A DNA stretch of 64,000 nt from assembly GCA_043812955.1 (NCBI GenBank), contig JBDRLN010000012.1, forward strand, positions 12,749-76,748. Direction: 5' to 3'. This DNA is from Candidatus Omnitrophota bacterium. Its GTDB lineage: Bacteria > Omnitrophota > Gorgyraeia > Gygaellales > Profunditerraquicolaceae. A program made the position numbers and the translations under genes. The notes under the pieces are model-generated. The model was not told the DNA's origin. It did not search any database and was given only the letters and a program-made list of their open reading frames with translations. Below are positions 12,258 through 56,699 of this stretch, piece by piece (position 1 is the first letter of the stretch; each line of letters opens with the position of its first letter).

Positions 12258-13182
12258 TCCTCCATTTTAGTTTTAGTAATTTAATCAGTACTGCCTTTTG
12301 AATATGCATCCTGTTTTCCGCCTGATCAAATACTATAGAATTAGGACTATCCATGATCTCACTGGTAATTTCCAGGCCCCGGTGCGCTGGCAGACAATGC
12401 ATAATCAATGTCTTTTTTTTAGCTAACCTGACTAATTTACTATTCAGCTGAAATTCCTGGAAAATTTTCTGCCTTTTCTTAGTTTCTGACTCCTGGCCCA
12501 TACTTGCCCACACATCAGTATATATAACATCGGATCCCTTAACTGCTTCCCGCGGATTTAAAAAAAGCTTTATCTTAGATCCGGTCCTAGCGCCGGCATT
12601 TTTTGCCTCCCTAACAATAGCTGGATCAGGGGCATATCCTTTAGGCGTAGCGATATTCAAATTTAAACCTACCTTAGAAGCAGCATGCAGCAAAGAATGA
12701 CAAACGTTGTTTCCATCTCCTATATAAACTAAGGTTATACCTTTAAATTTAGAAAACTTCTCTTTAATAGTATAAATATCAGCTAACCCCTGACAAGGAT
12801 GGATAAGGTCAGACAGCCCATTAATTACCGGAACACTTGCATACCTAGCCATATCCAATAAACTCTTCTGGGCAAATGTCCTAAGGACTATCGCATCAAC
12901 ATACCGGCTTAGAGTCCTGGCCACATCCGGTATACTCTCCCTTACCCCTAATTTAATATGTTCAGGCCCGAGATATATCGAATTCCCTCCTAATTCATAC
13001 ATTCCTACCTGAAAAGAAACATAAGTTCTATTAGACGGCTTTTCAAATATCAAAGCCAGGGTTTTACCCTTAAGCGAATCATTAAATTTAGCTGGATCTT
13101 TTTTAAGCTCTGTGGTTAGTTCCAATATTTCATTAACCTCTTTGGTACTTAAATCGCTAATACAAATCAGGTCTTTTTTCAC
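12244..13182 (-). CDS. argF: ornithine carbamoyltransferase (GTG start)
   Basis: Carbamoyltransferase fold with the HCLPAHRGLE motif; the carbamoyl-phosphate motif appears as SNRTY. GTG start overlaps the TGA of the upstream mini-ORF. Confidence 0.85.
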   Translation of the reverse strand: MKKDLICISDLSTKEVNEILELTTELKKDPAKFNDSLKGKTLALIFEKPSNRTYVSFQVGMYELGGNSIYLGPEHIKLGVRESIPDVARTLSRYVDAIVLRTFAQKSLLDMARYASVPVINGLSDLIHPCQGLADIYTIKEKFSKFKGITLVYIGDGNNVCHSLLHAASKVGLNLNIATPKGYAPDPAIVREAKNAGARTGSKIKLFLNPREAVKGSDVIYTDVWASMGQESETKKRQKIFQEFQLNSKLVRLAKKKTLIMHCLPAHRGLEITSEIMDSPNSIVFDQAENRMHIQKAVLIKLLKLKWRNGEY

Positions 13183-14438
13183 CCCGCACCTTCTTTCCTA
13201 TTCATTATTCTAAAACCTGTCGCCTTTAAGTCATTTAATTTTTTGGAAGGTGCGGGGTCCGCGCCCCTTAAAACATTATCCAATATCTTAATCGCCTTAT
13301 TAATTTCTGTTTTACCTATATTTAAAGCCGGCATTAACCTTAATACCGTATCGTGGGTACAATTAATCAATAATCCCTGTTTTAGGCATTGCTCGACTAT
13401 TTCTCTTCCCTCCTGTTTTAATTCCAATCCCCACATTAAACCCATTCCCCTTATCTCCTTAATCAGAGGATATTTATCCTTAAGCTCCAGTAGTTTAGCC
13501 TGGAGATACTCACTCATCTTTAAAGTATTACGCAAGATCTTTTCCTTTTGTATTGACCTTAAAACCGCTACCGCTGCCTTGGCTACCAATGGCCCTCCGC
13601 CGAAAGTAGAAGCGTGAGTGCCCGGGCTAAGGCAATCGGAAATCTCTTTTTTTACCATCATAGCGCCAATAGGTAAACCCCCGCCTAAGGCCTTAGCCAT
13701 AGTAAAGATATCCGGGACAATCCCGTAATTCTGCCAGGCAAACATTTTACCGGTGCGCCCGATGCCAGTCTGAACCTCGTCAATTATCAAAAGAATATTT
13801 TCATCATCGCAAAGCTGCCGCAAATTCAGGATAAAACCCCGGGTAGCGATATTAATCCCGCCTTCACCCTGCACCAATTCCAGCATTATAGCCGCAGTCT
13901 TAGGGGTAAGCGCGCATTTTAGCGCTGAGAAATCATTAAATTTAACTGTCTTAAAACCCTCGGGCAGGGGCGCGAAGCCCTGCTGATATTTAGCCTGGCC
14001 TGTAGCTGCCAAAGCAGCCAGAGTCCTTCCATGAAAAGAATTTTCAAAAGTAATAACCTCATACTTGCCTTTGCCGAATTTACGGCTGAATTTTATTGCC
14101 GCCTCATTTGCCTCAGCCCCGGAATTGCAAAAAAAAGCCTTAAACGGATACTTGGTCCAATGATTTAATTCCCGGGCTAATTTTGCCTGGGGTAAATTAT
14201 AATAATTATTGGGCACAAAGATCAGTTTAGTAACCTGGTCTTTCACAGCTGACATCACCTTGGGATGGCAATGACCTAAATTACAGACCCCCCATCCGGG
14301 AAAAAAATCCAAATATTTATTTCCCTGGATATCCCAAAGAAAGCTGCCTTTTCCTTTAACAAATACTAGAGGCTGCTTGGTATAGGTGGGCATTACATAA
14401 TCTTTATAGATATTAAACACATCCTGGAGCTTGGTCAT
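13179..14438 (-). CDS. argD: acetylornithine aminotransferase
   Basis: Class-III PLP aminotransferase (FCNSGAEANEAAIK, DEVQTGIGRTG); 419 aa including a ~30-aa C-terminal extension encoded by the repeated intergenic element. Confidence 0.85.
   Translation of the reverse strand: MTKLQDVFNIYKDYVMPTYTKQPLVFVKGKGSFLWDIQGNKYLDFFPGWGVCNLGHCHPKVMSAVKDQVTKLIFVPNNYYNLPQAKLARELNHWTKYPFKAFFCNSGAEANEAAIKFSRKFGKGKYEVITFENSFHGRTLAALAATGQAKYQQGFAPLPEGFKTVKFNDFSALKCALTPKTAAIMLELVQGEGGINIATRGFILNLRQLCDDENILLIIDEVQTGIGRTGKMFAWQNYGIVPDIFTMAKALGGGLPIGAMMVKKEISDCLSPGTHASTFGGGPLVAKAAVAVLRSIQKEKILRNTLKMSEYLQAKLLELKDKYPLIKEIRGMGLMWGLELKQEGREIVEQCLKQGLLINCTHDTVLRLMPALNIGKTEINKAIKILDNVLRGADPAPSKKLNDLKATGFRIMNRKEGAG
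13183..13270 (-). promoter_or_regulatory. Conserved ~85-nt structured intergenic element, copy 1 (upstream of argF): 5' CCCCGCACCTTC pairs with 3' GAAGGTGCGGGG (the argF SD); contains mini-ORF MNRKEGAG whose TGA overlaps the argF GTG
   Basis: Near-identical copies at 16442-16517 and 56700-56769. The argD ORF reads through this element to its stop at 13179. Confidence 0.6.
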
Positions 14439-15289
14439 TTTATTATCTCCGTGCCGATACCCTTATCGGTAAATATCTCCAGAAGCAAGGCATGAGAGAT
14501 GCAGGCATCAATAATATGGGTCTTTTTTACGCCTTTATCCAGGGCCTCAATACAAGCCTTAACCTTGGGGATCATCCCCTGTTGAATAACCTTACTTTTA
14601 ATCAACCCCCGGGCGTCTTCTTCGTTTAAAGTCGAGATAAAAGAATGCTGATCCTCTGGGTTACGCATAATACCTTTTACATTAGTCAATAAAACTAGCT
14701 TTTCCGCCTTTAAAGAAGCTGCGACATTAGCAGCCGCCTCATCGGCATTGACATTATAAGCAAACTTATCCAATCCTACGCCCATCGGTAAAATAGCTAC
14801 TAAGGCGTTACTCCTTAATTCATCAAGGATAACCTGGCCATTTACCCCAATGATATTTCCGACCCGGCCTAAATCTATTTTGGCTTTTTTCTTCTCAGCC
14901 TGGATCAAACCTTTATGTTTGCCGTTTAACCCTACTGCCTTTACGCCCATCCCTAAAATCTCTTTAACTATTATATCGTTTAATTTTTGTAATTCTTCTT
15001 CAACCACTACCAGGGTCTCTTCATCAGTTACCCGCATGCCATCGACAAAATCAGTTTTCTTCCCTGAGGCCCGCATCCGGTCGCTGATATTCGGGCCGCC
15101 GCCATGGACTAATACCGGCTTTAAACCGATAAAACTCAAAAACACAATATCTTCTAATACGCCTTTACGTATTTTATCCTCGCCCAATATACTGCCTCCG
15201 TATTTGATCACAATAATTTTATTGTGAAATTTTCGGATATAAGGCAAGGCCTCGATCAAAACATCCGCTTTCTTAATAGCTTCTTCCAT
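14435..15289 (-). CDS. argB: acetylglutamate kinase
   Basis: Amino-acid kinase family: VIKYGGS, VLVHGGGP; 284 aa. Confidence 0.9.
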   Translation of the reverse strand: MEEAIKKADVLIEALPYIRKFHNKIIVIKYGGSILGEDKIRKGVLEDIVFLSFIGLKPVLVHGGGPNISDRMRASGKKTDFVDGMRVTDEETLVVVEEELQKLNDIIVKEILGMGVKAVGLNGKHKGLIQAEKKKAKIDLGRVGNIIGVNGQVILDELRSNALVAILPMGVGLDKFAYNVNADEAAANVAASLKAEKLVLLTNVKGIMRNPEDQHSFISTLNEEDARGLIKSKVIQQGMIPKVKACIEALDKGVKKTHIIDACISHALLLEIFTDKGIGTEIIK

Positions 15290-15304: not shown

Positions 15305-16441
15305 CTAGTTATAGGCTGCGTTGATCTTAATATACTCGGGGGTAAGGTCGCAGGTATAAACCGTCGAACCACAATTACCCGCAAAGAGATTAACCTTAAC
15401 CTCGATATCTTGCTTATCTAAAGGGCTTAAAAAAACTTTTAATCTATCTTCATTAAAACTTACTCCGGCCGCCCCAATGCCTGCCGCCACTCTGCCGAAA
15501 TTAGGATTTTCCCCGAAAATCGCGGTCTTAAATAAATTAGAATTTGCAATTGCCAAACCCGCCTGTTTGGCTTCCTTTTTGCTCCTGGCTCCAGTCACAT
15601 TAATCTTAATAAATTTAGTAGCCCCCTCGCCATCCCGGATTATCATCTTCGCTAATTCCAGGCAAACTAAGCTTAAAGCCTTAAGAAATAACTGGTAGCC
15701 AATCCCATCATTAATAAGTTTATTTTCAGCAGCCCCGTTAGCCAGAATGATCACGGTATCATTTGTACTCATACACCCGTCAACTGTAATGCAATTAAAA
15801 GAATCATCTACTGCCATCCTCAAGGCCTTATCCAGGCCGGGCTGGGTAATTAAAGCATCCGTAAATATAAACCCGAGCATTGTCGCCATATTCGGGGCGA
15901 TCATACCTGAACCTTTGGCAATACCGCAGATTTTTATCCGCTGGCGGCCGTAGCTAAACTCTAGAGTAACTTCTTTGGTAATGATATCCGTAGTCAGAAT
16001 CGCTAATTTAGCTTTTTCTATCCCCTTAGGCGTTAATCCGGCAATCAATTCCGGAATAAACTTTTTTATTTTATCCATAGGCAGCCTTTTACCGATAATT
16101 CCGGTAGAGGCCACCAATACACCCTCTTTTTTTAAACCCATTTCCCGGGATAATATCCGGGCAGTCTCCTGAGCATCCCTCAATCCTTGCGCACCGGTAA
16201 AACAATTGGCATTACCGCTGTTAACTATTATCGCCTGAAAAACCTTTTCTTGCTTAAGATGTCTTTGGTTTAATTTCAAGGGAGCAGCCTTAATTTTATT
16301 AGCGGTAACTACACAACTAGCCTTGGCCGGCACTAAAGAATAGAATAAGGCTAAATCCGGTTTCCCGGATCTTTTAATCCCCGCGCATAAACCATTAGCT
16401 TTAAAACCAATAGGTAAAATAGCTTTTTTAAAGATCTTCAC
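15305..16441 (-). CDS. argJ: bifunctional glutamate N-acetyltransferase / amino-acid acetyltransferase (GTG start)
   Basis: ArgJ autoproteolytic-site motif ATMLGFIFTDA; 378 aa. Confidence 0.9.
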   Translation of the reverse strand: MKIFKKAILPIGFKANGLCAGIKRSGKPDLALFYSLVPAKASCVVTANKIKAAPLKLNQRHLKQEKVFQAIIVNSGNANCFTGAQGLRDAQETARILSREMGLKKEGVLVASTGIIGKRLPMDKIKKFIPELIAGLTPKGIEKAKLAILTTDIITKEVTLEFSYGRQRIKICGIAKGSGMIAPNMATMLGFIFTDALITQPGLDKALRMAVDDSFNCITVDGCMSTNDTVIILANGAAENKLINDGIGYQLFLKALSLVCLELAKMIIRDGEGATKFIKINVTGARSKKEAKQAGLAIANSNLFKTAIFGENPNFGRVAAGIGAAGVSFNEDRLKVFLSPLDKQDIEVKVNLFAGNCGSTVYTCDLTPEYIKINAAYN

Positions 16442-16517
16442 CCTGCACCTTCTTTTATATTCATAATCTTAAAAACTTTCACCTCTAAATCATTTAATTT
16501 TTTAGAAGGTGCGGGGT
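16442..16517 (-). promoter_or_regulatory. Conserved ~85-nt structured intergenic element, copy 2 (argC stop to argJ start); mini-ORF MNIKEGAG with TGA overlapping the argJ GTG
   Basis: TGAACCCCGCACCTTCTAAAAAATTAAATGATTTAGAGGTGAAAGTTTTTAAGATTATGAATATAAAAGAAGGTGCAGGGTGAAG on the minus strand. Confidence 0.6.
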
Positions 16518-18652: not shown

Positions 18653-18673
18653 AAATATTTTTTTAAAATAATA

Positions 18674-18727
18674 GGGGACGTTTCTATTTTTCTGTTTATC
18701 TAAATATTGAAAAATAGAAACGTCCCC
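18674..18727. repeat. 54-bp perfect hairpin (GGGGACGTTTCTATTTTTC / 16-nt loop / GAAAAATAGAAACGTCCCC), copy A, 3' of the transporter gene; terminator-like on the minus strand
   Basis: Identical to copy B at 19904-19957; the two copies bracket the 18746..19894 gene. Confidence 0.8.
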
Positions 18728-18745
18728 TATTCGTCCCCTGTTAAC

Positions 18746-19894
18746 CTAGTTTATCTTATTGATCAGGAACAGGCACAAAAAACTAGTCACCGCGGAAAAT
18801 ACAATAAGCCATTGTAATCCTACGATGGGCAAAAGAAAAGCCCCGGAGAGATTGCTGGCGATCATAGCCAGATTGCTTATGCTGCACAAAAATGCAAATG
18901 AGGTTGCCTCTAATCCGGAAATTGTGTTTCTAGCCATAAAATCCATAACCATCAAAAATATAAACATCCCGATAAAATTATAGATAATATCATAAATAAC
19001 CGCGCTAACCGGCACATAATAAAGATAACTTAAAGTAGTAAACGCGCCCAGAAAAACGGAAAAATAAAGCCATTTGCGCATATTTATCTTCTGACTGAAT
19101 TTATAATACAATAATGACCCGATAATCCCGAAAACTGTACCTATAGTGCCTAACGTGCCGATCCAGACCTTATTCCACTTAAAAATATCTCTCTGGATAA
19201 AAAAAAGCGGAGTGCCGAAAGACGGCGAGAATTTGTAAAGAAAGATAAATAGGCCTACGATCATCAATTGTTTATGGCTGAATAATTTCTTTAAATCAGA
19301 AGAAAGCGTATTTTTAGAAGACGCCAGAACTGCGCGGTCCTCTCGGTAAAAAAAATTGATGATCCCGGCTAAAGCGTAAAATGGCAGTAAACAGAAGAAG
19401 GCTCTACGATAATCCCATCTCTGGGCAATATAACCGCCGCCTATGCCGGTGATTAGACCGGCTATTAATATAGAAACCCACTGGATGCTCTGGATCTTTC
19501 CGGTAATGCTTAATTTTTTTCCTTCCACGCACATTATCCCGTCAACAGATACATCCCTGAAAGCGGAATTCGTGGAACTTAAGACTAATAAAATAACTAA
19601 AGGAAGAATTGGCAAGGCAATAAGCCCTATGACCATAACCACAATTATATCCAAGCTCAATGAGATGAAAATCCAAACCTTTTTATTGAAAAACCTATCT
19701 ATTATATAACCTATTAATGGCTTAATCAGCCAGGCAGAAATCGTAACGCTGCTTAAGACCATTATTTTCTGGGGAGAAAAACCCAAGGTTTCTTTTAAAT
19801 AATAGAATATGCCCTGGGAAGGAAGGCCTTCAAATCCCTGGATAAAATAAACAATGCTGCTTAGGGCGTAGATAGAGAATATTTTTTTATTCAT
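18746..19894 (-). CDS. folate-biopterin transporter (FBT/BT1) family MFS permease
   Basis: N-terminal VYFIQGFEGLPSQGIFYYLKETLGFSP matches the FBT-family signature; ~12 predicted TM helices; 382 aa. Confidence 0.65.
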   Translation of the reverse strand: MNKKIFSIYALSSIVYFIQGFEGLPSQGIFYYLKETLGFSPQKIMVLSSVTISAWLIKPLIGYIIDRFFNKKVWIFISLSLDIIVVMVIGLIALPILPLVILLVLSSTNSAFRDVSVDGIMCVEGKKLSITGKIQSIQWVSILIAGLITGIGGGYIAQRWDYRRAFFCLLPFYALAGIINFFYREDRAVLASSKNTLSSDLKKLFSHKQLMIVGLFIFLYKFSPSFGTPLFFIQRDIFKWNKVWIGTLGTIGTVFGIIGSLLYYKFSQKINMRKWLYFSVFLGAFTTLSYLYYVPVSAVIYDIIYNFIGMFIFLMVMDFMARNTISGLEATSFAFLCSISNLAMIASNLSGAFLLPIVGLQWLIVFSAVTSFLCLFLINKIN

Positions 19895-19903
19895 AAATAA
19901 ATG

Positions 19904-19957
19904 GGGGACGTTTCTATTTTTCTGTTTATCTAAATATTGAAAAATAGAAACGTCCCC
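19904..19957. repeat. 54-bp perfect hairpin, copy B, between the secG stop and the transporter start (9 nt upstream of its ATG)
   Basis: Sequence identical to 18674-18727. Confidence 0.8.
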
Positions 19958-19962
19958 TAGTT

Positions 19963-22275: not shown

Positions 22276-22382
22276 TCCACCCTACCCATTCCACCCCGTA
22301 GGTGGGCTCCACCCCGTAGGTGGGCTCCACCTACGGGGTGGACATGAAGGTTTAATATAGCCTAATTTAGCTTATTTGTCAA
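22276..22382 (-). promoter_or_regulatory. pgk promoter region: consensus promoter (TTGACA-17-TATATT) followed by three tandem 15-bp sites CCACCCCGTAGGTGG separated by GCT (third copy inverted); putative repressor operator array
   Basis: Sites at 22291-22305, 22309-22323 and 22327-22341 with a degenerate fourth upstream. The same motif occurs at 55600-55632 (gap) and 63695-63727 (DegT unit). Confidence 0.6.
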
Positions 22383-24699: not shown

Positions 24700-24834
<135 letters not shown>

Positions 24835-25110: not shown

Positions 25111-25482
25111 TTACTTCGCACTGTTATCCGCGCCTATCTTAACATCTGTTTCTCTTTTTATCTTTTCGCAATAATAGACGTCTTCGGAAACGTCAATATT
25201 ATTATTGTGCCCCTGTTCTTTTAACTTAAAAATGGCATCTGAAAGATAAGATTCTGCGGTGGCATAAGATTCTTTCGCTTGGAATGGCGTTGAAGAACAT
25301 TCTGCCTTGTCTAGCCAATCTATGGCTTTTCTATAGCTCACATTCGCCTCTGCCAGCTTGGGATTATGAGATAGTTCTCTGCGGTATGGTGTCCCACACG
25401 TAGCACAAGAGCTAAGTGCAATAACGACAATTCCTAAAACCAAGATACTAAATCCTCTGATATATTTCTTCATCACATTCAC
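25111..25482 (-). CDS. hypothetical lipoprotein (signal peptide + lipobox LSSC)
   Basis: MKKYIRGFSILVLGIVVIALSSCAT... N-terminus; no domain recognised. Confidence 0.55.
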   Translation of the reverse strand: MNVMKKYIRGFSILVLGIVVIALSSCATCGTPYRRELSHNPKLAEANVSYRKAIDWLDKAECSSTPFQAKESYATAESYLSDAIFKLKEQGHNNNIDVSEDVYYCEKIKRETDVKIGADNSAK

Positions 25483-25485
25483 CTC

Positions 25486-25505
25486 CCTGCCTGCCGGCAG
25501 GCAGG
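25486..25505. repeat. perfect 20-bp palindrome CCTGCCTGCCGGCAGGCAGG immediately upstream of the lipoprotein SD
   Basis: Minus strand reads CCTGCCTGCCGGCAGGCAGGGAGGTGAATGTGATG. Confidence 0.7.
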
Positions 25506-25519
25506 CTTTACACCGTTTT

Positions 25520-25605
25520 GGGGCTGGTCATCAACAACTAAAATTACTGATTTGTCTTTGATCCTCTACCTCTTTTGAGTTTGACTTTTCAACATATTAG
25601 GGGTG
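25520..25605 (-). pseudogene. ~85-bp duplicated segment: 5' UTR + first 18 codons of the receiver gene at 31703-31790 (ATG mutated to ATC); forms the C-terminal tail of the glgP fusion ORF
   Basis: ggctggtcatcaacaactaaaattactgatttgtctttgatcctctacctcttttgagtttgacttttcaacatattag against 31703-31788: only two mismatches over 82 nt. Confidence 0.7.
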
Positions 25606-28481
25606 GCGCCTAGGGGAACGTCCCCGGAATACGCGCATGGAACATTCCAAATATCTTTTGCATATTCCCTTATTGTCCTATCACTTGAGAATCTACCTGA
25701 TTTAGCTACATTAATAATTGATTTTCTGGTCCACTCTTTCTTATCTGCATAAAGCTGGGAGGCTTTCTCCTGCTTTGCGCAATAATCATCAAAATCCGCG
25801 CAGACAAAGTAGCGGTCGCCGCAAAACAGGCTATTTAAAAGCGGGGAAAAAAGATTGGGTTGGTCCAGAGAAAAGAAATTATTCTGGATAAGCCCAATTA
25901 TCTCCTTAAGCACCATAGAGCGATTAATATAGTCCTGAGAATTATATCCGGATGCCAATATCTTCTCGATCTCTTCAAGCCTTAAGCCAAAAATAATAAT
26001 GTTGTCTTCGCCCACAGCTTCGGCTATTTCAATATTTGCCCCATCATAGGTTCCGATAGTCAGAGCGCCATTCATCATAAACTTCATACAGCCCGTTCCT
26101 GAAGCTTCGGTGCCTGCGGTTGAAATCTGCTCGGATAGGTCACTCGCAGGAATTATACGTTCCGCTAAAGTTACACGATAATTCTCCAAGAATATTACCT
26201 TTAATTTATCGCCAATCGCTTTATCGCTGTTCACTACATCCGCGATGCTGTTAATAAATTTAATTACAAGCTTGGCCATGAAATATCCAGGGGCAGCCTT
26301 ACCAGCAACAATAAAAGTCCTTGGGACAAGGCTTGCGCGCGGATTATTTTTAACCCTTAGGTACTGCGAAGCGATATAAAGCCCAAACAAAAATTGCCTT
26401 TTATATTCATGAAATCTTTTAACCTGTACATCAAACATAGAATCCGGGTTTACACGAATACCGGTACTTTCATAAATATATTCGGTGAGGTGTTTTTTGT
26501 TTGCTTTCTTTACCCCCTGCCAACTTTTGCAAAAATCACTATCATCTTTTAAGGTAGTAAGCTTTTCCAATTCGTAGAGATCAGTAACCCATTTATTACC
26601 GATTGCCGAAGTTATTAACTCAGAAAGGTGAGTATTGGATTTCTGCAGCCACCTTCTTTGGGTAATACCATTAGTCTTGTTATTGAATCTTTCCGGGAAG
26701 AACTCATAGAAATCCTTAAAGAGCTGTTCCTTAATAAGCTTTGTGTGTAATTCAGATACGCCGTTTATTGAGTGTGAACCGATTATAGCCAAATTGGCCA
26801 TACGGACTTTATTAGGATATCCCTCTTCAATAATAGACATCCTTCTTAGACGATCTGCATCTTGAGGATATCTTTTGGCCACATCTTTTAAAAAACGCAT
26901 GTTGATTTCATAAATGAGCTGCATATGCCTAGGCAGAAGACGCTCGAAACTCGGAACAGGCCAACACTCAAGGGCTTCTGACATTACCGTGTGATTTGTA
27001 TAACCAAATGTCCTCACAGCTATATCCCAAACAGTATCCCAATCTAGATTTTCTTCGTCAATTAAGATACGCATCAGCTCAACTATTGCCAAAGATGGAT
27101 GAGTATCGTTAAGTTGAATTGCTACTTTATCAGGGAAAAATTTAAAATCGGAATTGCCTTCTTTAAAACGACGGATAATATCCGCGATTGAGGCAGCGGT
27201 AAAGAAGTATTCCTGTTTTAAGCGCAGTTCCTTACCCTGGCTGCTGCTATCTCTGGGATAGAGGACCTTGGAAATATTTTCTGAAGATACCTTACTATAA
27301 ACTGCATGCTCATAATCACCTTCATTAAAATAGTTTAAATCAAAGTCAGCGCTGCTGCGCGCAGACCAAAGTTGCAATGTATTTACAATGTCAGTTTTAT
27401 ACCCTACAACTGGGATATGATAAGGTACCGCCAGAACATCTTCAGTATCAACCCATTTAACCCGCAACTTTCCCAATTCATCGTTAAACATGGAAGTGCG
27501 GCCGCCAAAACTTACCCTCACCGTACACTCAATCCTAGGAAATTCCCAGGGATTACCTTTATTAAGCCAAGCGTCAGGATATTCCGCCTGGTAACCATTT
27601 ATTATTTTTTGATTAAAAATCCCATATTCATATCGTATGCCATAGCCATGGGCCGGAATACCAAGGGTAGCCATCGAATCAAGAAAACATGCTGCCAATC
27701 TTCCTAAACCGCCATTCCCAAGACCCGCATCCTGCTCGCAGTCATACACTTCTTCAAGGTCAAGCCCCAATTCCTTAACAGCAAGTTTTGTCTCATTCCA
27801 TAGGCCTAAGTTAAGCATATTAGACCCAAGGAGGCGGCCAATTAAAAACTCCAAGGATAAATAATAAACTCTCTTTACGTTTTCTTTGTGGTATCCTTGT
27901 TGCGTATTAATCCAGCGCTCAATAAGCCTGTCTCTGATAGCGATGGCCAAAGCCATAAAATTATCATTAGGGGTTACGCTATACTGATCTTTGGCAAGCG
28001 AGTATTCGCGGGTAGCAAGAAATGAATGCTTGATACCATCCTTAGACATATCTTTGCCGATATTAAACCAAGAATTGACGTCTATTTTACTCTGCGGCAA
28101 GAATTTTATCCTAAGAAGAGATTTTATCCTGACAGAAAGCTCAGTCTTATCAAATGGCTTAGAAATAAAATCATCGCAACCTGCCTCTACCCCTTTAATC
28201 CTCTCTTCTTCTCCCGTTAAAGAAGTGATCATAACCACAGGCAAGGCTTGAGTCTCCTTTGTGGATTTTATCTTCTTGCATACTTCATATCCGTCAAGCT
28301 TAGGCATCATAACGTCTAATAGAATAAGATCCGGAGGATCTAAGGCCACCTTAGCCAGCGCTTCGCTTCCATTTACCGCCATTATGACATTGTAGCCGCG
28401 CGGGACGAGCAGCGCCTCGAGAAGTTCAAGATTCTTCGGTTCGTCGTCAACACAGAGAATCGTCAGCTTTTTATCGGTCAT
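25566..28481 (-). CDS. glgP: CheY-like receiver domain fused to glycogen/alpha-glucan phosphorylase
   Basis: The N-terminal ~130 aa (KKLTILCVDDEP...LILLDVMMPKLDGYEV...SKPF) is a receiver paralogous to that of 30777..31748. The remaining ~830 aa is a GT35 phosphorylase (AIRDRLIERW, EASGTGCMKFMMNGALTIGTYDGANIE, Lys-PLP region). ATG at 28481 has SD AAGGAGG. Confidence 0.85.
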   Translation of the reverse strand: MTDKKLTILCVDDEPKNLELLEALLVPRGYNVIMAVNGSEALAKVALDPPDLILLDVMMPKLDGYEVCKKIKSTKETQALPVVMITSLTGEEERIKGVEAGCDDFISKPFDKTELSVRIKSLLRIKFLPQSKIDVNSWFNIGKDMSKDGIKHSFLATREYSLAKDQYSVTPNDNFMALAIAIRDRLIERWINTQQGYHKENVKRVYYLSLEFLIGRLLGSNMLNLGLWNETKLAVKELGLDLEEVYDCEQDAGLGNGGLGRLAACFLDSMATLGIPAHGYGIRYEYGIFNQKIINGYQAEYPDAWLNKGNPWEFPRIECTVRVSFGGRTSMFNDELGKLRVKWVDTEDVLAVPYHIPVVGYKTDIVNTLQLWSARSSADFDLNYFNEGDYEHAVYSKVSSENISKVLYPRDSSSQGKELRLKQEYFFTAASIADIIRRFKEGNSDFKFFPDKVAIQLNDTHPSLAIVELMRILIDEENLDWDTVWDIAVRTFGYTNHTVMSEALECWPVPSFERLLPRHMQLIYEINMRFLKDVAKRYPQDADRLRRMSIIEEGYPNKVRMANLAIIGSHSINGVSELHTKLIKEQLFKDFYEFFPERFNNKTNGITQRRWLQKSNTHLSELITSAIGNKWVTDLYELEKLTTLKDDSDFCKSWQGVKKANKKHLTEYIYESTGIRVNPDSMFDVQVKRFHEYKRQFLFGLYIASQYLRVKNNPRASLVPRTFIVAGKAAPGYFMAKLVIKFINSIADVVNSDKAIGDKLKVIFLENYRVTLAERIIPASDLSEQISTAGTEASGTGCMKFMMNGALTIGTYDGANIEIAEAVGEDNIIIFGLRLEEIEKILASGYNSQDYINRSMVLKEIIGLIQNNFFSLDQPNLFSPLLNSLFCGDRYFVCADFDDYCAKQEKASQLYADKKEWTRKSIINVAKSGRFSSDRTIREYAKDIWNVPCAYSGDVPLGATPNMLKSQTQKR

Positions 28482-28597
28482 AATGCCTCCTTGAGCATCG
28501 ACCACAGTTTATGGTCGACTCACCAGACGCCGGTGTTTTTTAACTGGAAATGGCGTAACTCTTTGAAAGATAATGTAATTACGTGTATATGTAAAAA

Positions 28598-29980
28598 TTA
28601 TTCTAAATAAATATCTTTATCGCCCCTGATGCTCCCTCCTTTAATCTTACTGTGCAATTCTTCTTTAGACAACGCAAAAAGAGGGCTGATCTCTACTCTT
28701 ACCTGTGGCTCTACTTTAATTCCTGCATCATTGAGCCAATTTTTATACATGTTACTCAATATCTTTCTAACGGTTTCCGGGGAATCATCGCCCTGTTTAT
28801 TCTTCAGCGGAGCAAATTCTTCTTCGCGGGATATTTCCATACAGCAGGTGTTTTTCGCTAAAGGTATGGCGTCGAAAATAAAGGTTTCAAATTTCCATCC
28901 TTTGATTTCTGTGATTTCATCTTGCGCTCCAAATGAATCTAACATTTTAATAGCATGATGATACGGCAAAGCAAATCCGGACTCATTTAAACGCTGGATG
29001 AAAACTAGAGAAACCATATGTATTGCAGTATTACCCGCCCAATCGCGGATTTGCCCGTTATTATCTAAGATGCAGCGGTTATCCGAGTCTAACTCGCTGT
29101 ACTCAATAACTTTTGCCTTGCCATTTTCAGCGGCAAAGATCCCGACCTTTTCCTCACAGCTTCTGCGGCGCACTATTTTAGTAGACATTTCTGAATCTTC
29201 CATCTTATGATACCCGATGAAAACCGGATCCATTATCTTTACCAAGAGATTGTCGATCTGACAATAGAACAAATCGGAATATCCATCTTCAATTAGTTGT
29301 TTTAACAAACCGGAGTCACGCAACGCCTTGATACAACCACCGTGACCGTTTGGATTAACGAATAGATGAGTTTTGTCCTTTAAAATTAATTTACCATCTA
29401 CAGTTAAAGTAGGAAGCATCTCCTGCTCAAAGAAATGCACCGTTTGCGGATCGAGGGTAAAAAAATTATGGGTTTTAAAAAAGTCTTTTACTTCCGGCAG
29501 CATTTCCGTATCCGTCATTATCAGCAACGGAATAACAACTTTGTAGCGCAAAGATAAAGCCCTGACCGACTCGGCAAAAAGCTGGAATAAAGATTTGTTT
29601 TTTACGGGAGAAATCGGAAACATTCCTTTAGGGCCATTAAAACCTAAACGAGAGCCATGTCCTCCGGCTACGATCAAAACAGCTATCTTGTTCTTGGAGA
29701 TTATTGACTCACCCAATATGCGCGCCTCGTCCCTTTGCACTTGCTCATCAGAATCTTTAGGAATACTAAATATCGGTGATGGATAGATGTCTATGCGATG
29801 TTTGACGGGTAATTTTTGAACGGACGCCTTTTTATAAAGTGAGAAGACGAGCTCAAAATCAAGATTCCCGATTTCACCGATAAACTTTTCTTTCTCCAAA
29901 AGGCTTAACGACTGGTAATGCCTAAGAATATGGGTTTGGTTATATACTTTAAGCAGATTTAAAAAATATTCTTCTTTCAT
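28598..29980 (-). CDS. UDP-sugar pyrophosphorylase of the UDPGP family (UAP1/USP-like, eukaryote-type)
   Basis: VLIVAGGHGSRLGFNGPKGMFPIS matches the UDPGP nucleotide-binding loop (L-x-GG-x-G-T/S-R-L-G); 460 aa. Confidence 0.6.
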   Translation of the reverse strand: MKEEYFLNLLKVYNQTHILRHYQSLSLLEKEKFIGEIGNLDFELVFSLYKKASVQKLPVKHRIDIYPSPIFSIPKDSDEQVQRDEARILGESIISKNKIAVLIVAGGHGSRLGFNGPKGMFPISPVKNKSLFQLFAESVRALSLRYKVVIPLLIMTDTEMLPEVKDFFKTHNFFTLDPQTVHFFEQEMLPTLTVDGKLILKDKTHLFVNPNGHGGCIKALRDSGLLKQLIEDGYSDLFYCQIDNLLVKIMDPVFIGYHKMEDSEMSTKIVRRRSCEEKVGIFAAENGKAKVIEYSELDSDNRCILDNNGQIRDWAGNTAIHMVSLVFIQRLNESGFALPYHHAIKMLDSFGAQDEITEIKGWKFETFIFDAIPLAKNTCCMEISREEEFAPLKNKQGDDSPETVRKILSNMYKNWLNDAGIKVEPQVRVEISPLFALSKEELHSKIKGGSIRGDKDIYLE

Positions 29981-30033
29981 GGTTTACCTATCCGTATCGT
30001 CTAAAACCTTTAATCGCAGCATATTTTTTAAGT

Positions 30034-30738
30034 TTAATTATTATGAAGACTGTATGTTTTCATTAATAAAGCGTATTTAAAGGCGCCCTTACCCTGTATT
30101 TTAATCGGGACCCGCGGAGTCTCCTTGTTAACCCAGATCTCAAACTCATCGGGGATACTTTTAAAATGGTAAGCCTGGTATTTACCGGCAGGGACCGTTA
30201 TTTCATCTATTGAAACTAATTCTAATCTAAATTCAGCGGGGACTCTTATAGTAAAACTCCAGCCTATTTCAATATCAGGATGCCTGCGTATATAAAAAGG
30301 GATCAGGATTGTGTTCTGGATCGGGCTGCCTGCTTTGGTTATCTGCTCCTTTATTAATTTCACGCCTTTAAACTTCCTTGTTACAACTGTAAATTTCTGC
30401 TGGTCATATTCTTCTGTTATATATTCCTTACTCAAGAACCCGGAGATGGCGCGTTCTATCCTGTACGGCAATAAGCTTTCCGGGTCGCTATAAATTTTCT
30501 CCGTGTCCTCAAAAAAAAATACCTTAGTCTTAAACGTTACTAAATTAACCTTTACCCCGTTTAAATCAACCACCCCAAGGTCGTTATATTCTGATCTTCC
30601 AAAAGGGCTTATAAGATACGTTATGCTTTCTCCTGTATAATCATGACTGCCGGTTTCCCCCTTCAATAAATCATTGCCTGCAAAAACCATTAAAACTATC
30701 GCCGATACAATAAGTATTTTATTGATTTTCATATTCAT
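30034..30738 (-). CDS. secreted protein of unknown function (paralog of 33509..34222)
   Basis: Signal peptide; ~45% identity to the 33509..34222 product along the full length (DYTGE..YLI.P.G.SEY.D.G.VDLNGV...YDPES.LPY..ER...). Confidence 0.6.
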   Translation of the reverse strand: MNMKINKILIVSAIVLMVFAGNDLLKGETGSHDYTGESITYLISPFGRSEYNDLGVVDLNGVKVNLVTFKTKVFFFEDTEKIYSDPESLLPYRIERAISGFLSKEYITEEYDQQKFTVVTRKFKGVKLIKEQITKAGSPIQNTILIPFYIRRHPDIEIGWSFTIRVPAEFRLELVSIDEITVPAGKYQAYHFKSIPDEFEIWVNKETPRVPIKIQGKGAFKYALLMKTYSLHNN

Positions 30739-30776
30739 TTACCTTGGCAAATCTTGAGACTACATGCTTACATCTG

Positions 30777-31748
30777 TCATAAGGAGTGACCACCTGCTAT
30801 GGTAAGCCCAAGCAGTTCCTCCACTATTGAAACAAGCAAAGCGGATTGCTTAGAGACGCTATCAATTACTTTTTTTTGTTCCTCATTAAGAGCTCCGTAT
30901 GATCCATCCTGAAGTAATGATAGGTTTCCGTTAATCACTCCCAACGGTGTACGCAGTTTATGCGAAATAAGAGTTAAGGTATCCTGTTTTTGAAATTCTT
31001 CCGTGCGCGATAAGGTAACATCGCGTAAAACAAAAACAGTGCTTAATAGCTCTCCGGCTGAATTCTTTATCACATTCAAATTTACCTCTAAATATAATGC
31101 CTCTGTCGAATCGCTCTTTTGGCGCACTATATCAAATGTTTTATGCGTAATCGCTAAATCCATAAGAGCTTCTTTTTTTATAGAAACAGAATAATTCGTG
31201 AATAACTTTTCGACCAAATTAACATTCGCCGGATCGGTAATATTTAAATACTTTAAAATCTCCGCATTGCAATCTTTAATTAGATAATCCGGGGCGCAGA
31301 TTGCAATGCCATCGCTTACTTTATCAACCACTGCCTTAAATTTCTCCTTTTCCTCTAACTGCCGGCGGTAATAACTTATCTTGAGTATAGACTTAACTCT
31401 TGCTAATAGTTCAACCTTATCAACGGGCTTGGAGATAAAATCATCGCATCCTGCCTCAAGGGCTTTTACCTTGTCTTCGGTCTCCTTAAGTACGGTTACC
31501 ATTACCACCGGGATTTCCTTAGTCTTTTCGTCGGCACGCAAATTCTTGAGCACTTCTATGCCGGACATCTTGGGCATCATTACGTCCAGCAGAATCAGAT
31601 CGATTTGGTTATGGATAAGTTTTTCCAACGCTTCTTCACCGCTTGCCGCCTTGACAATTTCATAACCCTGCGGAACAAGATATGCTTCGAGAAGTTCAAT
31701 GTTTTGAGGCTGGTCATCAACAACTAAAATTACTGATTTGTCTTTCAT
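30777..31748 (-). CDS. receiver domain + PAS-like region + HisKA dimerisation/phosphoacceptor domain, no HATPase_c domain (Spo0B-like phosphotransfer protein or truncated hybrid kinase)
   Basis: Receiver KSVILVVDDQPQN...LILLDVMMPKMSGIEV...SKPV; H-box LISHKLRTPLGVINGN. The protein ends about 60 aa after the H-box and the next gene starts 39 nt later. Confidence 0.75.
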   Translation of the reverse strand: MKDKSVILVVDDQPQNIELLEAYLVPQGYEIVKAASGEEALEKLIHNQIDLILLDVMMPKMSGIEVLKNLRADEKTKEIPVVMVTVLKETEDKVKALEAGCDDFISKPVDKVELLARVKSILKISYYRRQLEEKEKFKAVVDKVSDGIAICAPDYLIKDCNAEILKYLNITDPANVNLVEKLFTNYSVSIKKEALMDLAITHKTFDIVRQKSDSTEALYLEVNLNVIKNSAGELLSTVFVLRDVTLSRTEEFQKQDTLTLISHKLRTPLGVINGNLSLLQDGSYGALNEEQKKVIDSVSKQSALLVSIVEELLGLTIAGGHSL

Positions 31749-31790
31749 CCTCTACCTCTTTTGAGTTTGACTTTTCAACATATTAGAAAC

Positions 31791-32156
31791 TCACTTAATA
31801 AACTGACTGACTTCTTTCGCAAAGGTGCGCGTATTTATCGGCTTGCCAATAAATCCGGAATTAGGTATGTCTTCTATCTCTTTTTTTCCTTCCGCCATAA
31901 CCGAAGCAGTCACAAAAACAATTGGGATACCGATTGTCTCTTTGTCTTCGCGCAATATTCTAGCAGCTTCGCTACCACGCATATCCGGAAGCCGCACATC
32001 CATAATTATGATATCCGGTTTTTCTCTCTTGGTAATGGCAATTCCATCGGTAGCATTTTCAGCTTCAAATACTTCAAAGCCAGCGACCTCCAAAAGGTCT
32101 TTTTCCAGCATCAGATTATTTCTATTATCATCGACAATTACAACTTTCTTCTTCAT
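31791..32156 (-). CDS. stand-alone CheY-like receiver (Spo0F-like)
   Basis: KKKVVIVDDNRNN...DIIIMDVRLPDMRGSEA...GKPI; ATG at 32156 preceded by AAAGGAGG. Confidence 0.8.
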   Translation of the reverse strand: MKKKVVIVDDNRNNLMLEKDLLEVAGFEVFEAENATDGIAITKREKPDIIIMDVRLPDMRGSEAARILREDKETIGIPIVFVTASVMAEGKKEIEDIPNSGFIGKPINTRTFAKEVSQFIK

Positions 32157-32157
32157 C

Positions 32158-33453
32158 TCAAACCTCCTTTCTTGAAGCAATGGGCAGAGTAAACTTTACT
32201 CCGGTCCCTTTATTTAGCCCTCCCGATTCTACAGAAAAATTCCCGCCGTGCAGCTCAACCAGTTTTTTCGAGAGCGGCAATCCCAGCCCTGTCCCTTCAG
32301 TTACCCGGGAATACGGAGTATCGACCCGAAAAAACCCTTCAAAGACTTTCCCTATGTTCTCCGGAGCGATACCGACTCCCGTATCCCAAACCTCTACTTC
32401 TATCTTAGAATCAACTTTCTTCGCCCGCATGCCGATTTTACCACCATCAGGGGTAAACTTGACCGCGTTGGAAAGGAGGTTGTAAATTATCTCTTTTATC
32501 TTGAGCTCATCCCCCTCAATATCTGGAAGGTCTTCGGCTATTTCAAGCAATATTTGAAGCTTCTTTTTACTGACCATATCCGCTACCAGCAGTGAAATCT
32601 CATTTAACAGGCTTTTCATAGGTAAGCTGGATAATGCCAGCTTCATCTTTCCGGATTCAACTTTTGCCATATCAAGTATCTGATTTATCAGTAAGAGGAG
32701 GTGTTTTCCGCTAGTTAAAATATTATTAATGTATTTTTTCTGCTTCTCGTTAAGCGGCCCGAAAGTCTCATCCCATAATATCTCAGAGAAACCGTTAATG
32801 GAGTTAAGCGGAGTCCTGAGCTCATGCGACATGTTGGCCAGGAACTCGGATTTTGCCCGGGTGGTACGTTTTAACTCGACGGCCAACTCCTGTAACTCTT
32901 TATGGGTCTTTTCCAGGCCTTTTTCTATCTCCCTGCGCTCGGTGATATCCTCGATAGCCAGAAGGATAACCCGCTCTTTACCCAGCACTTGTTTAATCTG
33001 CCGGGCATTCAGAAGCATTGTGCGCCTGCCAATGGTAGTAAAATCGTGTTCCACCTCATAGTTATCAAAGGTTGCTTTTTGGGGAAGGATGGTTTCCAGC
33101 AGTTCCCGCAGCTTGGGGATATTCCACTGTTTATTGCCCAGGTCATAAATAAGCTGCCCCACGGTCTCTTCAGGCTTTACCTTAAAGAATTCGTAGAAAG
33201 AACGGCTGACGGAGACCACCCTTAAGTCTTGATCCAGAGAAATCAAGGGTTCACGCACAGTGTTGATGATGCTCTCGGCGAATTCGAGGGCACCCTGAGC
33301 TACTCGCTCTGTTTTTTTACTTCCTTTAATTTCTTGGTGAAGCTGCTTGATAGTCTTTCTTCCTGGCACGGTGCGGATTTCTGCCCGATCCTGGATTTTT
33401 TTGGAGAATTTAATATTTTTCTTTTTATCTTTCATGGTTTCACCTCTATTCAT
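32158..33453 (-). CDS. cytoplasmic PAS-domain sensor histidine kinase
   Basis: PAS region (EPLISLDQDLRVVSVSRSFYEFF), H-box MSHELRTPLNSI, N/G1/G2 boxes (NLLSNAVKFT, DTGVGI, GTGLGL); 431 aa. Confidence 0.85.
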   Translation of the reverse strand: MNRGETMKDKKKNIKFSKKIQDRAEIRTVPGRKTIKQLHQEIKGSKKTERVAQGALEFAESIINTVREPLISLDQDLRVVSVSRSFYEFFKVKPEETVGQLIYDLGNKQWNIPKLRELLETILPQKATFDNYEVEHDFTTIGRRTMLLNARQIKQVLGKERVILLAIEDITERREIEKGLEKTHKELQELAVELKRTTRAKSEFLANMSHELRTPLNSINGFSEILWDETFGPLNEKQKKYINNILTSGKHLLLLINQILDMAKVESGKMKLALSSLPMKSLLNEISLLVADMVSKKKLQILLEIAEDLPDIEGDELKIKEIIYNLLSNAVKFTPDGGKIGMRAKKVDSKIEVEVWDTGVGIAPENIGKVFEGFFRVDTPYSRVTEGTGLGLPLSKKLVELHGGNFSVESGGLNKGTGVKFTLPIASRKEV

Positions 33454-33508
33454 GAGAAAGGTTATTATTTAGCCCTCTCGCTAGATTGATATATTTAGAA
33501 AACTTTTC

Positions 33509-34222
33509 TTAATTATTGCGGAGACTGTATCCTTTCATTAATAAAGAACAATTAACAATACCTTTAATTTTTATTTTAAGCGGAATTCGCGGGCTGCTTT
33601 TATCGATCCAGATTTCAAACGTATCAGGCACGCTTTTAAAATGGTAAGCTTGGAATTTTCCGCCCGGAACTATTATTTCATCTATTGAAATTAATTCTAA
33701 ATTAAATTTCACAAGTTTAAGTTCATTGAGGACCTTCGCGCTAAATTGCCAGCCTATTTTAAAGTCCGGTTGCTTACGCAGATAAAAAAGAAGCGTGTTC
33801 ATATTTTGAATCGGGCCGTCTGATTTGATTAGCCGCTCCTTTACTAACTTTTTGCCTTTGAACTTTTTTATTACAACTGTAAATTTCTTCTGATCGTATT
33901 CTTCTGTTCTATATTCTTTAATCCAAAGGCCTGAATTAGTGCGCTCTGTTTTATATGGCAACGAGCTTTCCGGATCGTAAAAAATCTTTTCCATAACTTC
34001 GACAAATAATATTTTACTCTTAAGCGTTACCAAATTCGCCGTCACTCCATTTAAATCAACCGTTCCACAATCTGTATATTCCGATTTTCCGATAGGTTCT
34101 ATAAGATATTGGATTCTTTCGCCGGTATAATCATAAATACCAGCTTCTCCCCTTAATAAATTATTATCACAAAGAATAATTAAAATTATTACCGATACAA
34201 TAATTATTATTTTAATTTTCAT
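33509..34222 (-). CDS. secreted protein of unknown function (paralog of 30034..30738)
   Basis: Signal peptide; paralogous as described for 30034..30738. The 3' flanks of both genes also share ttaattatt-gactgtat-tttcattaataaag. Confidence 0.6.
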   Translation of the reverse strand: MKIKIIIIVSVIILIILCDNNLLRGEAGIYDYTGERIQYLIEPIGKSEYTDCGTVDLNGVTANLVTLKSKILFVEVMEKIFYDPESSLPYKTERTNSGLWIKEYRTEEYDQKKFTVVIKKFKGKKLVKERLIKSDGPIQNMNTLLFYLRKQPDFKIGWQFSAKVLNELKLVKFNLELISIDEIIVPGGKFQAYHFKSVPDTFEIWIDKSSPRIPLKIKIKGIVNCSLLMKGYSLRNN

Positions 34223-35538
34223 ATTTTTGGGGTAGTCGTATCTTTAATCTTTAGGGGTTCTGTTTTCTGAAAACCGCCTTCGAGCACTGATGTAACTATG
34301 GATTTAATATAATTGCTGCAAATATCCCACTCCGCTTTCATGCGCCATTGAATGAGATACCGCGAACTATTTTTTTTGCCCAGAGAAACAGCTCTTCTTG
34401 ATCTAATTTTATCGTAAATCTCTAACGTATGTTTGGCGGCAGACATAATCGGGTATTTCTGTACCGTCATTCTTATGATCTGTTTTATGGTTTGTAACTC
34501 TTCAGGGGTTCGAGATAAAGTCCAGATAAGGGCATCAACAAAACTTTGCTGATCCATCTCATTGAGCAATCGCCCGTTGTGATAATCAACTACTACTTCC
34601 CGCGCTCCCGGAGCATTCAGCGCCACCACCGGAACTCCCGCTGCCATGGCTTCAATAAGAACTATTCCTTGTGTTTCGCTTAATGAAGCAAATGCGAAAA
34701 CATCCATGGCAAAATAAGCATCAACCAAATCCTGATAACGTAAAACCCCGGTTAAATGTAATCTTTTTTCAAGGCCAGCCTGTTCAAAGGTATCCTTGAT
34801 CAAATTTTGCGATGGGCCAAGGCCCACGATTAGAGCATGTACCTTTGGATCTTTTTTTAATAATTCAACCAGACAATTTGTCAGGAATACCAAATTCTTT
34901 TCCGGAGCCAGCCGACCGGCATGGCCAACCACTAAGGCATCGGGAGGGATCTGATGCTGCTCTCGAAAAGCAATTCCATCGCCTTTTGAAAAACGTTGTG
35001 CATCTATCCCTGTCGGAATAACCTCCATGGGAGTCTTAACGCCTCTTTTAAGTAAAATATCCTGTACGCTTTCGCTAGGCACGATTACCTGATCTACCAA
35101 ATTTGAATATCCGGCAGCAAGCTTGACCATAAATCTTTTCACTCCCTCATTTTGAACCGGCCAATCATGCACGTACTGCTCAAACATGCAGTGATAAGTA
35201 AATACAAGCGGTATGGCGTGCTGTCGACTAAGGCGTAGAGCAAAATCTCCCATGAAAAACGGGCCGTGGCTATGCACCATATCCGGCACAAATTCTTTCA
35301 TGTATCGCTTTAAGAGCCCAGAAATCGGAAAGTTAACGGAAAAAACAGTCCCGCCAAATTTTTGGAAAGCCGGAATCCGAATTACGCCTTGCTCCTCTTG
35401 CGGCGCGCCCCCAAAGGCCGGAGTAACAATCAAAACCTCATGCCCCAAACTTCTAAATGCCTCGCTAAAAGAATAAACCGATTGCTCTAATCCTCCTACC
35501 ATTGGAAAATAGGTATTCGTCATCATGAGAATATTCAT
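34219..35538 (-). CDS. family 4 glycosyltransferase (GT-B, diacylglycerol/sugar transferase-like)
   Basis: N-terminal MTNTYFPMVGGLEQSV and C-terminal E-x7-E region (ETQGIVLIEAMAAGVPVV) typical of GT4; 439 aa. Confidence 0.75.
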   Translation of the reverse strand: MNILMMTNTYFPMVGGLEQSVYSFSEAFRSLGHEVLIVTPAFGGAPQEEQGVIRIPAFQKFGGTVFSVNFPISGLLKRYMKEFVPDMVHSHGPFFMGDFALRLSRQHAIPLVFTYHCMFEQYVHDWPVQNEGVKRFMVKLAAGYSNLVDQVIVPSESVQDILLKRGVKTPMEVIPTGIDAQRFSKGDGIAFREQHQIPPDALVVGHAGRLAPEKNLVFLTNCLVELLKKDPKVHALIVGLGPSQNLIKDTFEQAGLEKRLHLTGVLRYQDLVDAYFAMDVFAFASLSETQGIVLIEAMAAGVPVVALNAPGAREVVVDYHNGRLLNEMDQQSFVDALIWTLSRTPEELQTIKQIIRMTVQKYPIMSAAKHTLEIYDKIRSRRAVSLGKKNSSRYLIQWRMKAEWDICSNYIKSIVTSVLEGGFQKTEPLKIKDTTTPKI

Positions 35539-55577: not shown

Positions 55578-55599
55578 TCTACTCCTCCTTAACCTATCT

Positions 55600-55632
55600 C
55601 CACCCCGTAGGTGGGCTCCACCTACGGGGTGG
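55600..55632 (-). promoter_or_regulatory. two 15-bp sites CCACCCCGTAGGTGG-GCT-CCACCTACGGGGTGG (perfect hairpin) 10 nt upstream of the gap Shine-Dalgarno sequence; putative operator
   Basis: Read directly; the same motif is found upstream of pgk (22291-22341) and of the DegT gene (63695-63727). Confidence 0.6.
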
Positions 55633-55648
55633 AATTATGGTTGATATA

Positions 55649-56653: not shown

Positions 56654-56699
56654 TAACGAGCGCCTCTATTCATTATGTTACGAGTTAACCCAACACCTT

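Follow-up and report, generated by a model that had tools for sequence, protein, structure and literature searches.

An 86-nt direct repeat at the 3' end of a receiver–glycogen phosphorylase gene of Omnitrophota as a scar of operon rearrangement

An 86-nt segment is present twice in the window (the whole 64-kb stretch of DNA analysed here), and the duplication is real, not a chance similarity. One copy is the 5' end of a live gene encoding a REC-PAS-HisKA protein, for which the working name RH is used. The other copy is a stub at the 3' end of the glycogen phosphorylase gene glgP, and this stub is not a gene, as it is truncated after codon 16 and its start codon is lost. The best explanation, which we consider likely, is that a tandem segmental duplication was followed by differential deletion and that the stub was later homogenised by conversion. 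The stub is an ordinary scar of genome evolution, and features of its kind are known. It is a dated fossil, showing that duplication and differential loss reshuffled the glycogen and two-component operon of an Omnitrophota clade.

The repeat and its gene neighbourhood

A repeat search of the 64-kb window detected the direct repeat at 25515–25600 (copy 1) and 31701–31786 (copy 2), with 84 of the 86 nt identical (98%) and a spacing of 6186 nt. When up to three mismatches are tolerated, each 38-nt half of the repeat matches the window exactly twice, and matches were found in 0 of 100 shuffles. The near-identical duplicated segment reported in the preliminary description is thereby confirmed, and its location was correct. 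Its ends were a few bases off; the identity stops at 25600 and 31786, not at 25605 and 31790. In the gene direction, the repeat consists of CTAATATGTTGAAAAGTCAAACTCAAAAGAGGTAGAGG, ATG and 15 further codons (MKDKSVILVVDDQPQN), i.e. the final 38 nt of the spacer 5' of RH, including the Shine–Dalgarno (SD) sequence, and RH codons 1–16. The SD GAGGTAGAGG and the ATG at 31748 had been assigned properly to the REC-HisKA gene, but 16 codons, not 18, lie within the repeat. The two copies differ at two positions. At 25560/31746, copy 1 has ATC in place of ATG when read on the minus strand, so that its start codon (25562–25560) is mutated. At 25521/31707, CCT of Pro codon 14 is changed to CCC in copy 1. 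The longest exact runs common to both copies are 41 and 38 nt. The genes of the region are on the minus strand throughout, and the features are as follows, where REC' is the receiver domain fused to glgP and L numbers designate loci of relatives.

25111–25473, minus strand: small lipoprotein-like gene, 120 aa from ATG, MFH1397057.1
25489–25506, minus strand: 7-bp GC hairpin (CCUGCCU GCCG GGCAGG), located 3' of the stub and before the lipoprotein-like gene
25515–25600, minus strand: copy 1, dead stub, 38 nt of the old glgP–RH spacer with the RH SD, and RH codons 1–16 (repeat search; break point common to relatives)
25566–28481, minus strand: REC'::GlgP fusion gene, 971 aa from ATG 28481, MFH1397058.1 (Pfam PF00072 and PF00343; fused homologues P0001–P0003)
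25601–25627, minus strand: surviving 3' part of the ancestral glgP–RH spacer (GGGGACGTTCCCCTAGGCGCCACCC), now codons GDVPLGAT (comparison with L001 12685–12711, L015, L081 and L082)
28598–30738, minus strand: UDPGP (28598–29980) and DUF3108-A (30034–30738), flanked by RH and the fusion gene and part of the 6.1 kb that the copies bracket (Pfam)
30777–31748, minus strand: RH, REC-PAS-HisKA protein, 323 aa, no HATPase; live gene with duplicated 5' end (Pfam)
31701–31786, minus strand: copy 2, live version, nearly the whole 42-nt REC–RH spacer, SD GAGGTAGAGG, ATG 31748 and RH codons 1–16
31791–32180, minus strand: REC, stand-alone receiver, 129 aa; the next gene is RH here and glgP in unfused relatives

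According to Pfam, the gene order in the gene direction is GT4, DUF3108-B, HK (a PAS-HisKA-HATPase kinase), REC, RH, DUF3108-A, UDPGP, REC'::GlgP, the stub and the small lipoprotein-like gene. RH orthologues are 80–93% identical in L001, L015, L081, L085, L086, L168 and L171. The order RH-DUF3108-UDPGP is the same in L086/L087 and L171, and the lipoprotein-like gene comes after the stub in the window, L081, L168 and L171. By exact protein look-up, the 971-aa and 120-aa ATG-start versions were matched (MFH1397058.1 and MFH1397057.1), and no match was obtained for the 979-aa GTG-start fusion ORF, the 123-aa lipoprotein ORF, RH or UDPGP.

The two DUF3108 proteins are paralogues, as had been proposed, with 60% identity at the protein level. 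The conserved 3' flanks ascribed to them were not found; there is no meaningful conservation past the stop codon. The orthologues of DUF3108-B occupy their own conserved position in L015 and L085, and those of DUF3108-A likewise in L001 and L086. Therefore, the DUF3108 paralogy is older and lies outside the repeat event. The HK upstream of REC has an internally duplicated PAS module in L001 (7375–9432), L015 (4920–6923) and L171 (4446–6401), with lengths of 651–685 aa, and a single PAS module in the window (32158–33453, 431 aa) and L168 (422 aa).

Further repeats and another stub are present in the window. The last ~26 codons of a GAPDH gene are located at ~24716–24795 (minus strand), between the lipoprotein-like and SpeE-like genes and upstream of pgk-tpiA, and are 89% identical over 62 nt to the 3' end of the intact gap gene (~54538–55600, minus strand). 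REP- or MITE-like intergenic elements that are palindromic or have terminal inverted repeats form three families (36, 66 and 81 nt), located at 22289–22342, 55598–55633 and 63693–63728; at 18664–18729 and 19894–19959; and at 13178–13258, 16437–16517 and 56685–56765. Two paralogous stretches (41352–42176 and 46827–47654), 5.5 kb apart, have 70–75% nucleotide identity.

The stub and the end of the phosphorylase gene

Copy 1 had been described as the source of the last 11 codons and the stop codon of the glgP ORF, with its ATG changed to ATC. Both observations hold: the ORF ends inside copy 1 with ..TPNMLKSQTQKR, and the TAG is within the SD. The first 35 nt of copy 1 supply the last ~11 glgP codons and the TAG in a frame other than that of RH. 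The cause, however, is a separate deletion specific to the window, not the duplication itself. A stretch of exactly 39 nt (TGCTGAAGCTTTGTTGATATGAT...CGATTCC) has been lost from the window 5' of copy 1, between two ATTCC repeats. In L001, L015, L081 and L082, these 39 nt contain the native glgP end ..PCAYSC*, and the stop context of the relatives (..PCAYSC* TGA AGCTTTGTTGAT..) is missing from the window. The 39-nt deletion is in frame and removed the native stop codon; because of this, the glgP ORF reads 18 codons further, through the spacer and the stub, to the TAG in the stub SD. In L085, the stop codon was lost by a different deletion, and glgP reads the same frame, ending in ..MVKSQTQKR*. 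The odd tail of 18 residues on the phosphorylase is the product of a recent accident rather than a feature.

The dead receiver fragment noted 3' of the glgP ORF is indeed present without a start codon; the start codon of the stub is ATC in the window and ACG in L081. The downstream break point of the stub, CAAAAC|GGTGT (..CAGCCCCAAAAC|GGTGT..), is the same in the window, L081, L168/L169/L170 and L171. In all these loci the break point is followed on its 3' side by hairpin units and then by the same small lipoprotein-like gene. L081 and L171 are NCBI MAGs, and L168, L169 and L170 are from JGI, ENA and Logan; L169 and L170 are further assemblies of the L168 type. The identical break point in relatives indicates that the truncation of RH after codon 16 occurred once, in a common ancestor, and its recurrence in other assemblies indicates that the stub is independent of the window assembly. 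The hairpin units of ~45–50 nt (GGTGT.CCCTTTCTGGGCAA and a second hairpin) are arrayed between the stub and the lipoprotein-like gene, with one unit in the window (25483–25514), ~4 in L081 (5443–5633) and ~8 in L171 (12901–13290).

The spacer just 5' of copy 1 (..ATTCCGGGGACGTTCCCCTAGGCGCCACCC) matches L001 12685–12711. As glgP lies directly before RH in the unfused relatives, the stub marks the old glgP/RH junction. The upstream boundary of copy 2 lies after TGAGTTTCTAA (TGA GTTTCTAA). The native REC–glgP spacer of L087 (TGATTTTCCTAAGAGGAG...) matches this left boundary, with a 4-nt microhomology, CTAA.

No function is evident for the repeat in itself. The stub is degraded in L081, reduced to its last ~15–23 nt in L168 and L171 by a deletion between two TTGTTGAT repeats, and absent in L082 and L083. 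In L081, L168 and L171, both glgP and the lipoprotein gene are retained. An Rfam search of the whole window gave no match, and a promoter and terminator scan gave no more matches than shuffles. The fold of the stub region is not significant against shuffles (z = −1.2), and the 7-bp GC hairpin at 25489–25506 is the sole exception.

Gene order in relatives and the receiver fusion

In the unfused relatives L001, L015, L085 and L086/L087, glgP is located directly between the stand-alone REC and RH (REC-glgP-RH). For L001 and L015, the identity in GlgP is 89–90%. L085 has the tightly packed order HK-REC-glgP-RH, and L086/L087 have REC-glgP-RH-DUF3108-UDPGP. The fused loci are HK-REC-RH-REC'::glgP-lipoprotein (L081), UDPGP-REC'::glgP (L082), RH-REC'::glgP (L083), HK-REC-RH-UDPGP-REC'::glgP-lipoprotein (L168/L169/L170) and HK-REC-RH-DUF3108-UDPGP-REC'::glgP-lipoprotein (L171), the last of which is identical in order to the window. 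Wherever glgP lies downstream of RH or UDPGP (the window, L081, L082, L083, L168 and L171), it is fused. All six fused locus types are rearranged, and all four unfused ones have REC-glgP-RH.

Small remnants are found in the unfused loci. Between REC and glgP, L015 contains the RH leader, RH codons 1–4 and a ~36-nt RH/REC'-like stretch (DVMMPK). The 5' end of this stretch is RH-like (19/19 to the window RH), and the 3' end is REC'-like (..CCTAAGCTTG). As judged from only ~36 nt with one RH-specific and three REC'-specific fixed sites, the stretch appears to have arisen by recombination across the conserved DVMMPK motif. L001 has a more decayed version of the same REC–glgP remnant, and L015 has a 37-aa UDPGP fragment after RH. 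The DNA upstream of glgP in L001 was also considered as a remnant of REC' nt 283–324 (score 27, four gaps); the comparison of L001 and L015 identified it as a DVMMPK-region remnant instead. In L001, a hairpin-rich element of ~150 nt is present in both spacers flanking glgP (9805–9960 and 12711–12850), and both insertions are at a ..TAAT|AT.. site of the RH leader sequence.

In the fusion protein, the receiver corresponds to residues 1–127, and the phosphorylase domain ends with ..IWNV, followed by a 24-aa tail. The fusion junction is ..VRIKSLLRIKF|LPQSKIDVNSW at ~28100, 2.5 kb from the repeat. The 86-nt repeat is not the fusion junction and sits at the opposite (3') end of glgP. The junction ..RIKF|(L/S)(P/A)Q.. 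is the same in all aligned fused loci (the window, L081, L082 and L083), which points to a single origin of the REC'–glgP fusion. The glgP ATG at the junction is TTG, or another codon in L081 and L083. The phospho-acceptor motifs of REC' are retained (DD, D in LLDVMMP, T/S and K in ISKPF). AGGATAAAATTCTTG at the junction was considered as the possible old SD and start of glgP; according to RH and L089, ..SLLRIK is native receiver sequence, which makes this reading uncertain.

REC' is 53–57% identical to the RH receiver. Its best unfused homologue, with 73% identity, is the receiver domain of a hybrid kinase (372 aa) in L089. L089 is a more distant locus, in which the hybrid kinase gene comes directly after HK-REC. 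According to these similarities, REC' was probably once the N-terminal domain of a hybrid histidine kinase encoded in the same cluster. When REC' alone served as the protein query, no close REC' gene without the fusion was retrieved; short high-identity fragments (P0121 and P0124) and generic receivers with at most 63% identity were obtained. When metagenomes were scanned with the 327 N-terminal residues of the fusion protein, generic receivers dominated and close relatives were not found, L089 being the useful match. Among the top 120 GlgP clusters, the REC'::GlgP architecture (PF00072 and PF00343, 953–971 aa) is observed only in a small Omnitrophota clade. P0001 belongs to a 90% cluster of 41 members, P0251 and P0254 among them. 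To our knowledge, glycogen phosphorylase (PF00343) has not been described as a receiver output, and a literature search found no paper on a receiver–phosphorylase fusion.

The preliminary description held that the duplication and recombination probably created this fusion. In favour of it, the fusion always accompanies the rearranged gene order, which is a correlation; the position of the junction speaks against the repeat as the point of fusion. On the same correlation, it is plausible that one rearrangement series put REC' in front of glgP. A farther-reaching proposal is that the stub rearrangement itself put the hybrid-kinase receiver before glgP, giving a receiver-controlled glycogen phosphorylase, and that the repeats also keep the 6.1-kb RH-DUF3108-UDPGP-REC'::glgP block recombinable by excision or amplification. 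We regard it as tentative and rather doubtful. The repeat frames the origin of this unusual fusion, which is the more interesting object.

Origin of the repeat and comparison with known systems

The copies within one genome are 97.7% identical in the window (84/86) and 77.9% identical in L081 (67/86). Orthologous comparisons of the segment give 76–80 of 85–86 identical positions (88–93%). The identity at four-fold sites is ~79% between the window and L081, and ~85% between the window and L168. Since the break point predates the divergence of the window from L168 and from L081, the repeat event is old despite the 98% identity. Within the window genome, the paralogues are more alike than the orthologues between genomes, the duplication being older. 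For a neutral stub, ~10 or more differences are expected and two were observed; the probability of at least 84/86 is ~1e-4 to 3e-3 at assumed expected identities of 0.85–0.89 with no homogenisation. An old event with copies this similar suggests that conversion took place later. Conversion by the live copy 2, or unequal recombination with it, is the most likely cause of the 98% identity in the window, provided that the stub changes neutrally and in a roughly clock-like manner. The distance matrix of the segment is additive with a near-zero window branch, and a very short branch leading to the window would be compatible with these distances as well.

The following course is proposed. In an ancestor of the small Omnitrophota clade, part of the HK-REC-glgP-RH-DUF3108-UDPGP cluster would have been tandemly duplicated, so that RH stood before and after glgP. 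The duplicated block would be REC-[RH-DUF3108-UDPGP-REC'-glgP-spacer]-[RH-DUF3108-UDPGP...]. In the window line, the downstream RH would have been deleted from codon 17 on, leaving the stub (copy 1), and the upstream RH with copy 2 would have been retained. The second RH would have been lost in the window, L081, L168 and L171, with its first 16 codons at most left. In L001 and L015, the first RH through REC' would have been lost except for small remnants, and the second RH kept, so that the order became REC-glgP-RH again. The postulated intermediate, in which both RH copies would be complete, was not found in any of the genomes.

The order before the duplication may have been either REC-glgP-RH, as in L085 and L086/L087, or window-like RH-...-REC'-glgP. 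Neighbour-joining trees of GlgP and RH have too little resolution to fix the direction of the rearrangement. In the GlgP tree, the unfused L001 and the fused L081 group together (99%), and so do the window, L168 and L082 (94%); the other support is low, including that for a basal L086 with L084 as outgroup. glgP is near the same CSD-ABC-F genes in L084 and L168, which could favour an old window-like position. The CSD-ABC-F genes come directly after glgP in L084. In L168, an IS (rve_3 transposase, 13623–14693) and a ParE toxin gene (15700–15957) are located between the lipoprotein-like and CSD-ABC-F genes. L168 is the closest relative of the window, yet it shares the stub deletion with L171, not with the window. 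To account for this common deletion, either the TTGTTGAT microhomology must have led to deletion more than once or the lineages must have recombined.

The original reading of the repeat as a scar of segmental duplication and recombination agrees with the break point common to L081, L168–L170 and L171 and with the unfused order glgP-RH. Dating by comparison with relatives gave an old event, not a recent one, with the copies of L081 only 78% identical and the stub of L168 and L171 mostly gone. If the segmental duplication had occurred recently in the window's own lineage, the similarity of the copies would reflect their young age, and the fusion would stem from that event, too. The high identity and the restriction of the fusion to the rearranged order fit this, but the stub break point and the aligned fusion junction are found in lineages that are 6–21% diverged at four-fold sites (L081, L168 and L171), and the repeat is at the end of glgP opposite to the fusion junction. 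The common break point largely refutes a recent duplication, which we regard as improbable. Selection or a very slow window branch may have kept the copies alike, for example if the stub served as the glgP 3' end and as a translation or termination signal before the lipoprotein gene. The stub of the window encodes the glgP tail and stop codon, one of its two differences kills its start codon, the distances are additive with a window branch near zero, and L085 independently reads glgP in the same frame. The coding use, however, dates only from the 39-nt deletion specific to the window, the 48 nt past the glgP stop are non-coding yet equally conserved, and no significant structure is formed. Moreover, the stub has decayed in L081 and is mostly deleted in L168 and L171, with glgP and the lipoprotein gene intact. 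As the stub is dispensable elsewhere, selection is unlikely, although it is less so than a recent duplication.

Two further possibilities concern the repeat as a join. The source is a contig of a Candidatus Omnitrophota MAG, in which a chimeric or collapsed join at a repeat may arise. The exact runs of 41 and 38 nt are below the final k-mers of the usual metagenome assemblers. The copies differ at two sites, and five further assemblies, drawn from four sources (NCBI, JGI, ENA and Logan), show both contexts again, namely REC-copy 2-RH and glgP-stub remnant-lipoprotein. The stub supports correct assembly of the contig at the glgP–lipoprotein site, and the chance of an artefact is close to negligible. 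Alternatively, the 86-nt direct repeats, which bracket 6.1 kb and could allow excision or amplification by RecA-type recombination, might be attachment or recombination sites of a mobile cassette (Campbell-type direct repeats). Against this, a Pfam search of all ORFs in 25111–35538 detected only operon genes, and there is no integrase, transposase or tRNA in or beside the segment. The bracketed genes belong to the operon itself and are ordered as in the relatives, the repeat corresponds to the start of a gene that has orthologues rather than to an att-like core, and relatives without the full stub have the same gene order. A mobile cassette is highly improbable. Tandem duplication with differential deletion and later homogenisation remains our preferred explanation.

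Three known processes can be compared with these results. Gene fusion by loss of a stop codon and spacer between neighbours, or at a duplication junction, gives rise to response regulators with enzymatic outputs. The REC'::GlgP fusion is like those arising by stop and spacer loss, in that REC' is in frame at the first codon of glgP (ATG to TTG), the receiver motifs are intact and the aligned fused loci have one junction. It is unlike the known receiver–enzyme fusions in that the output is glycogen phosphorylase and the 86-nt repeat is not the junction.

Concerted evolution of short intragenomic repeats by gene conversion is known from tufA/tufB and the rRNA operon paralogues of enterobacteria. 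As in those cases, the paralogues within one genome exceed the orthologues in identity, with the duplication predating the split. In contrast to them, the tract here is 86 nt only, one partner is a dead stub, conversion is deduced from identities and the sister L081 is without homogenisation. The window provides a clean small example of a dead gene fragment that is nearly identical to its live paralogue, apparently via gene conversion.

Tandem duplication and random (differential) loss (TDRL) changes gene order and leaves pseudogene stubs; it is best known from mitochondrial genomes and also occurs in bacteria. The present case differs from the TDRL ideal in that the two-copy intermediate was not observed and the change may have run in either direction, and from simple TDRL in that extra deletions, and possibly recombination between lineages, are needed to account for all loci. 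The likeness lies in the direct-orientation duplicate of a gene 5' end with one copy truncated and start-less, and in the short microhomologies at the junctions (CTAA, ATTCC and TTGTTGAT). It probably also lies in the opposite copies kept by sister lineages, as L001 and L015 have remnants of RH upstream of glgP and the live RH gene downstream.
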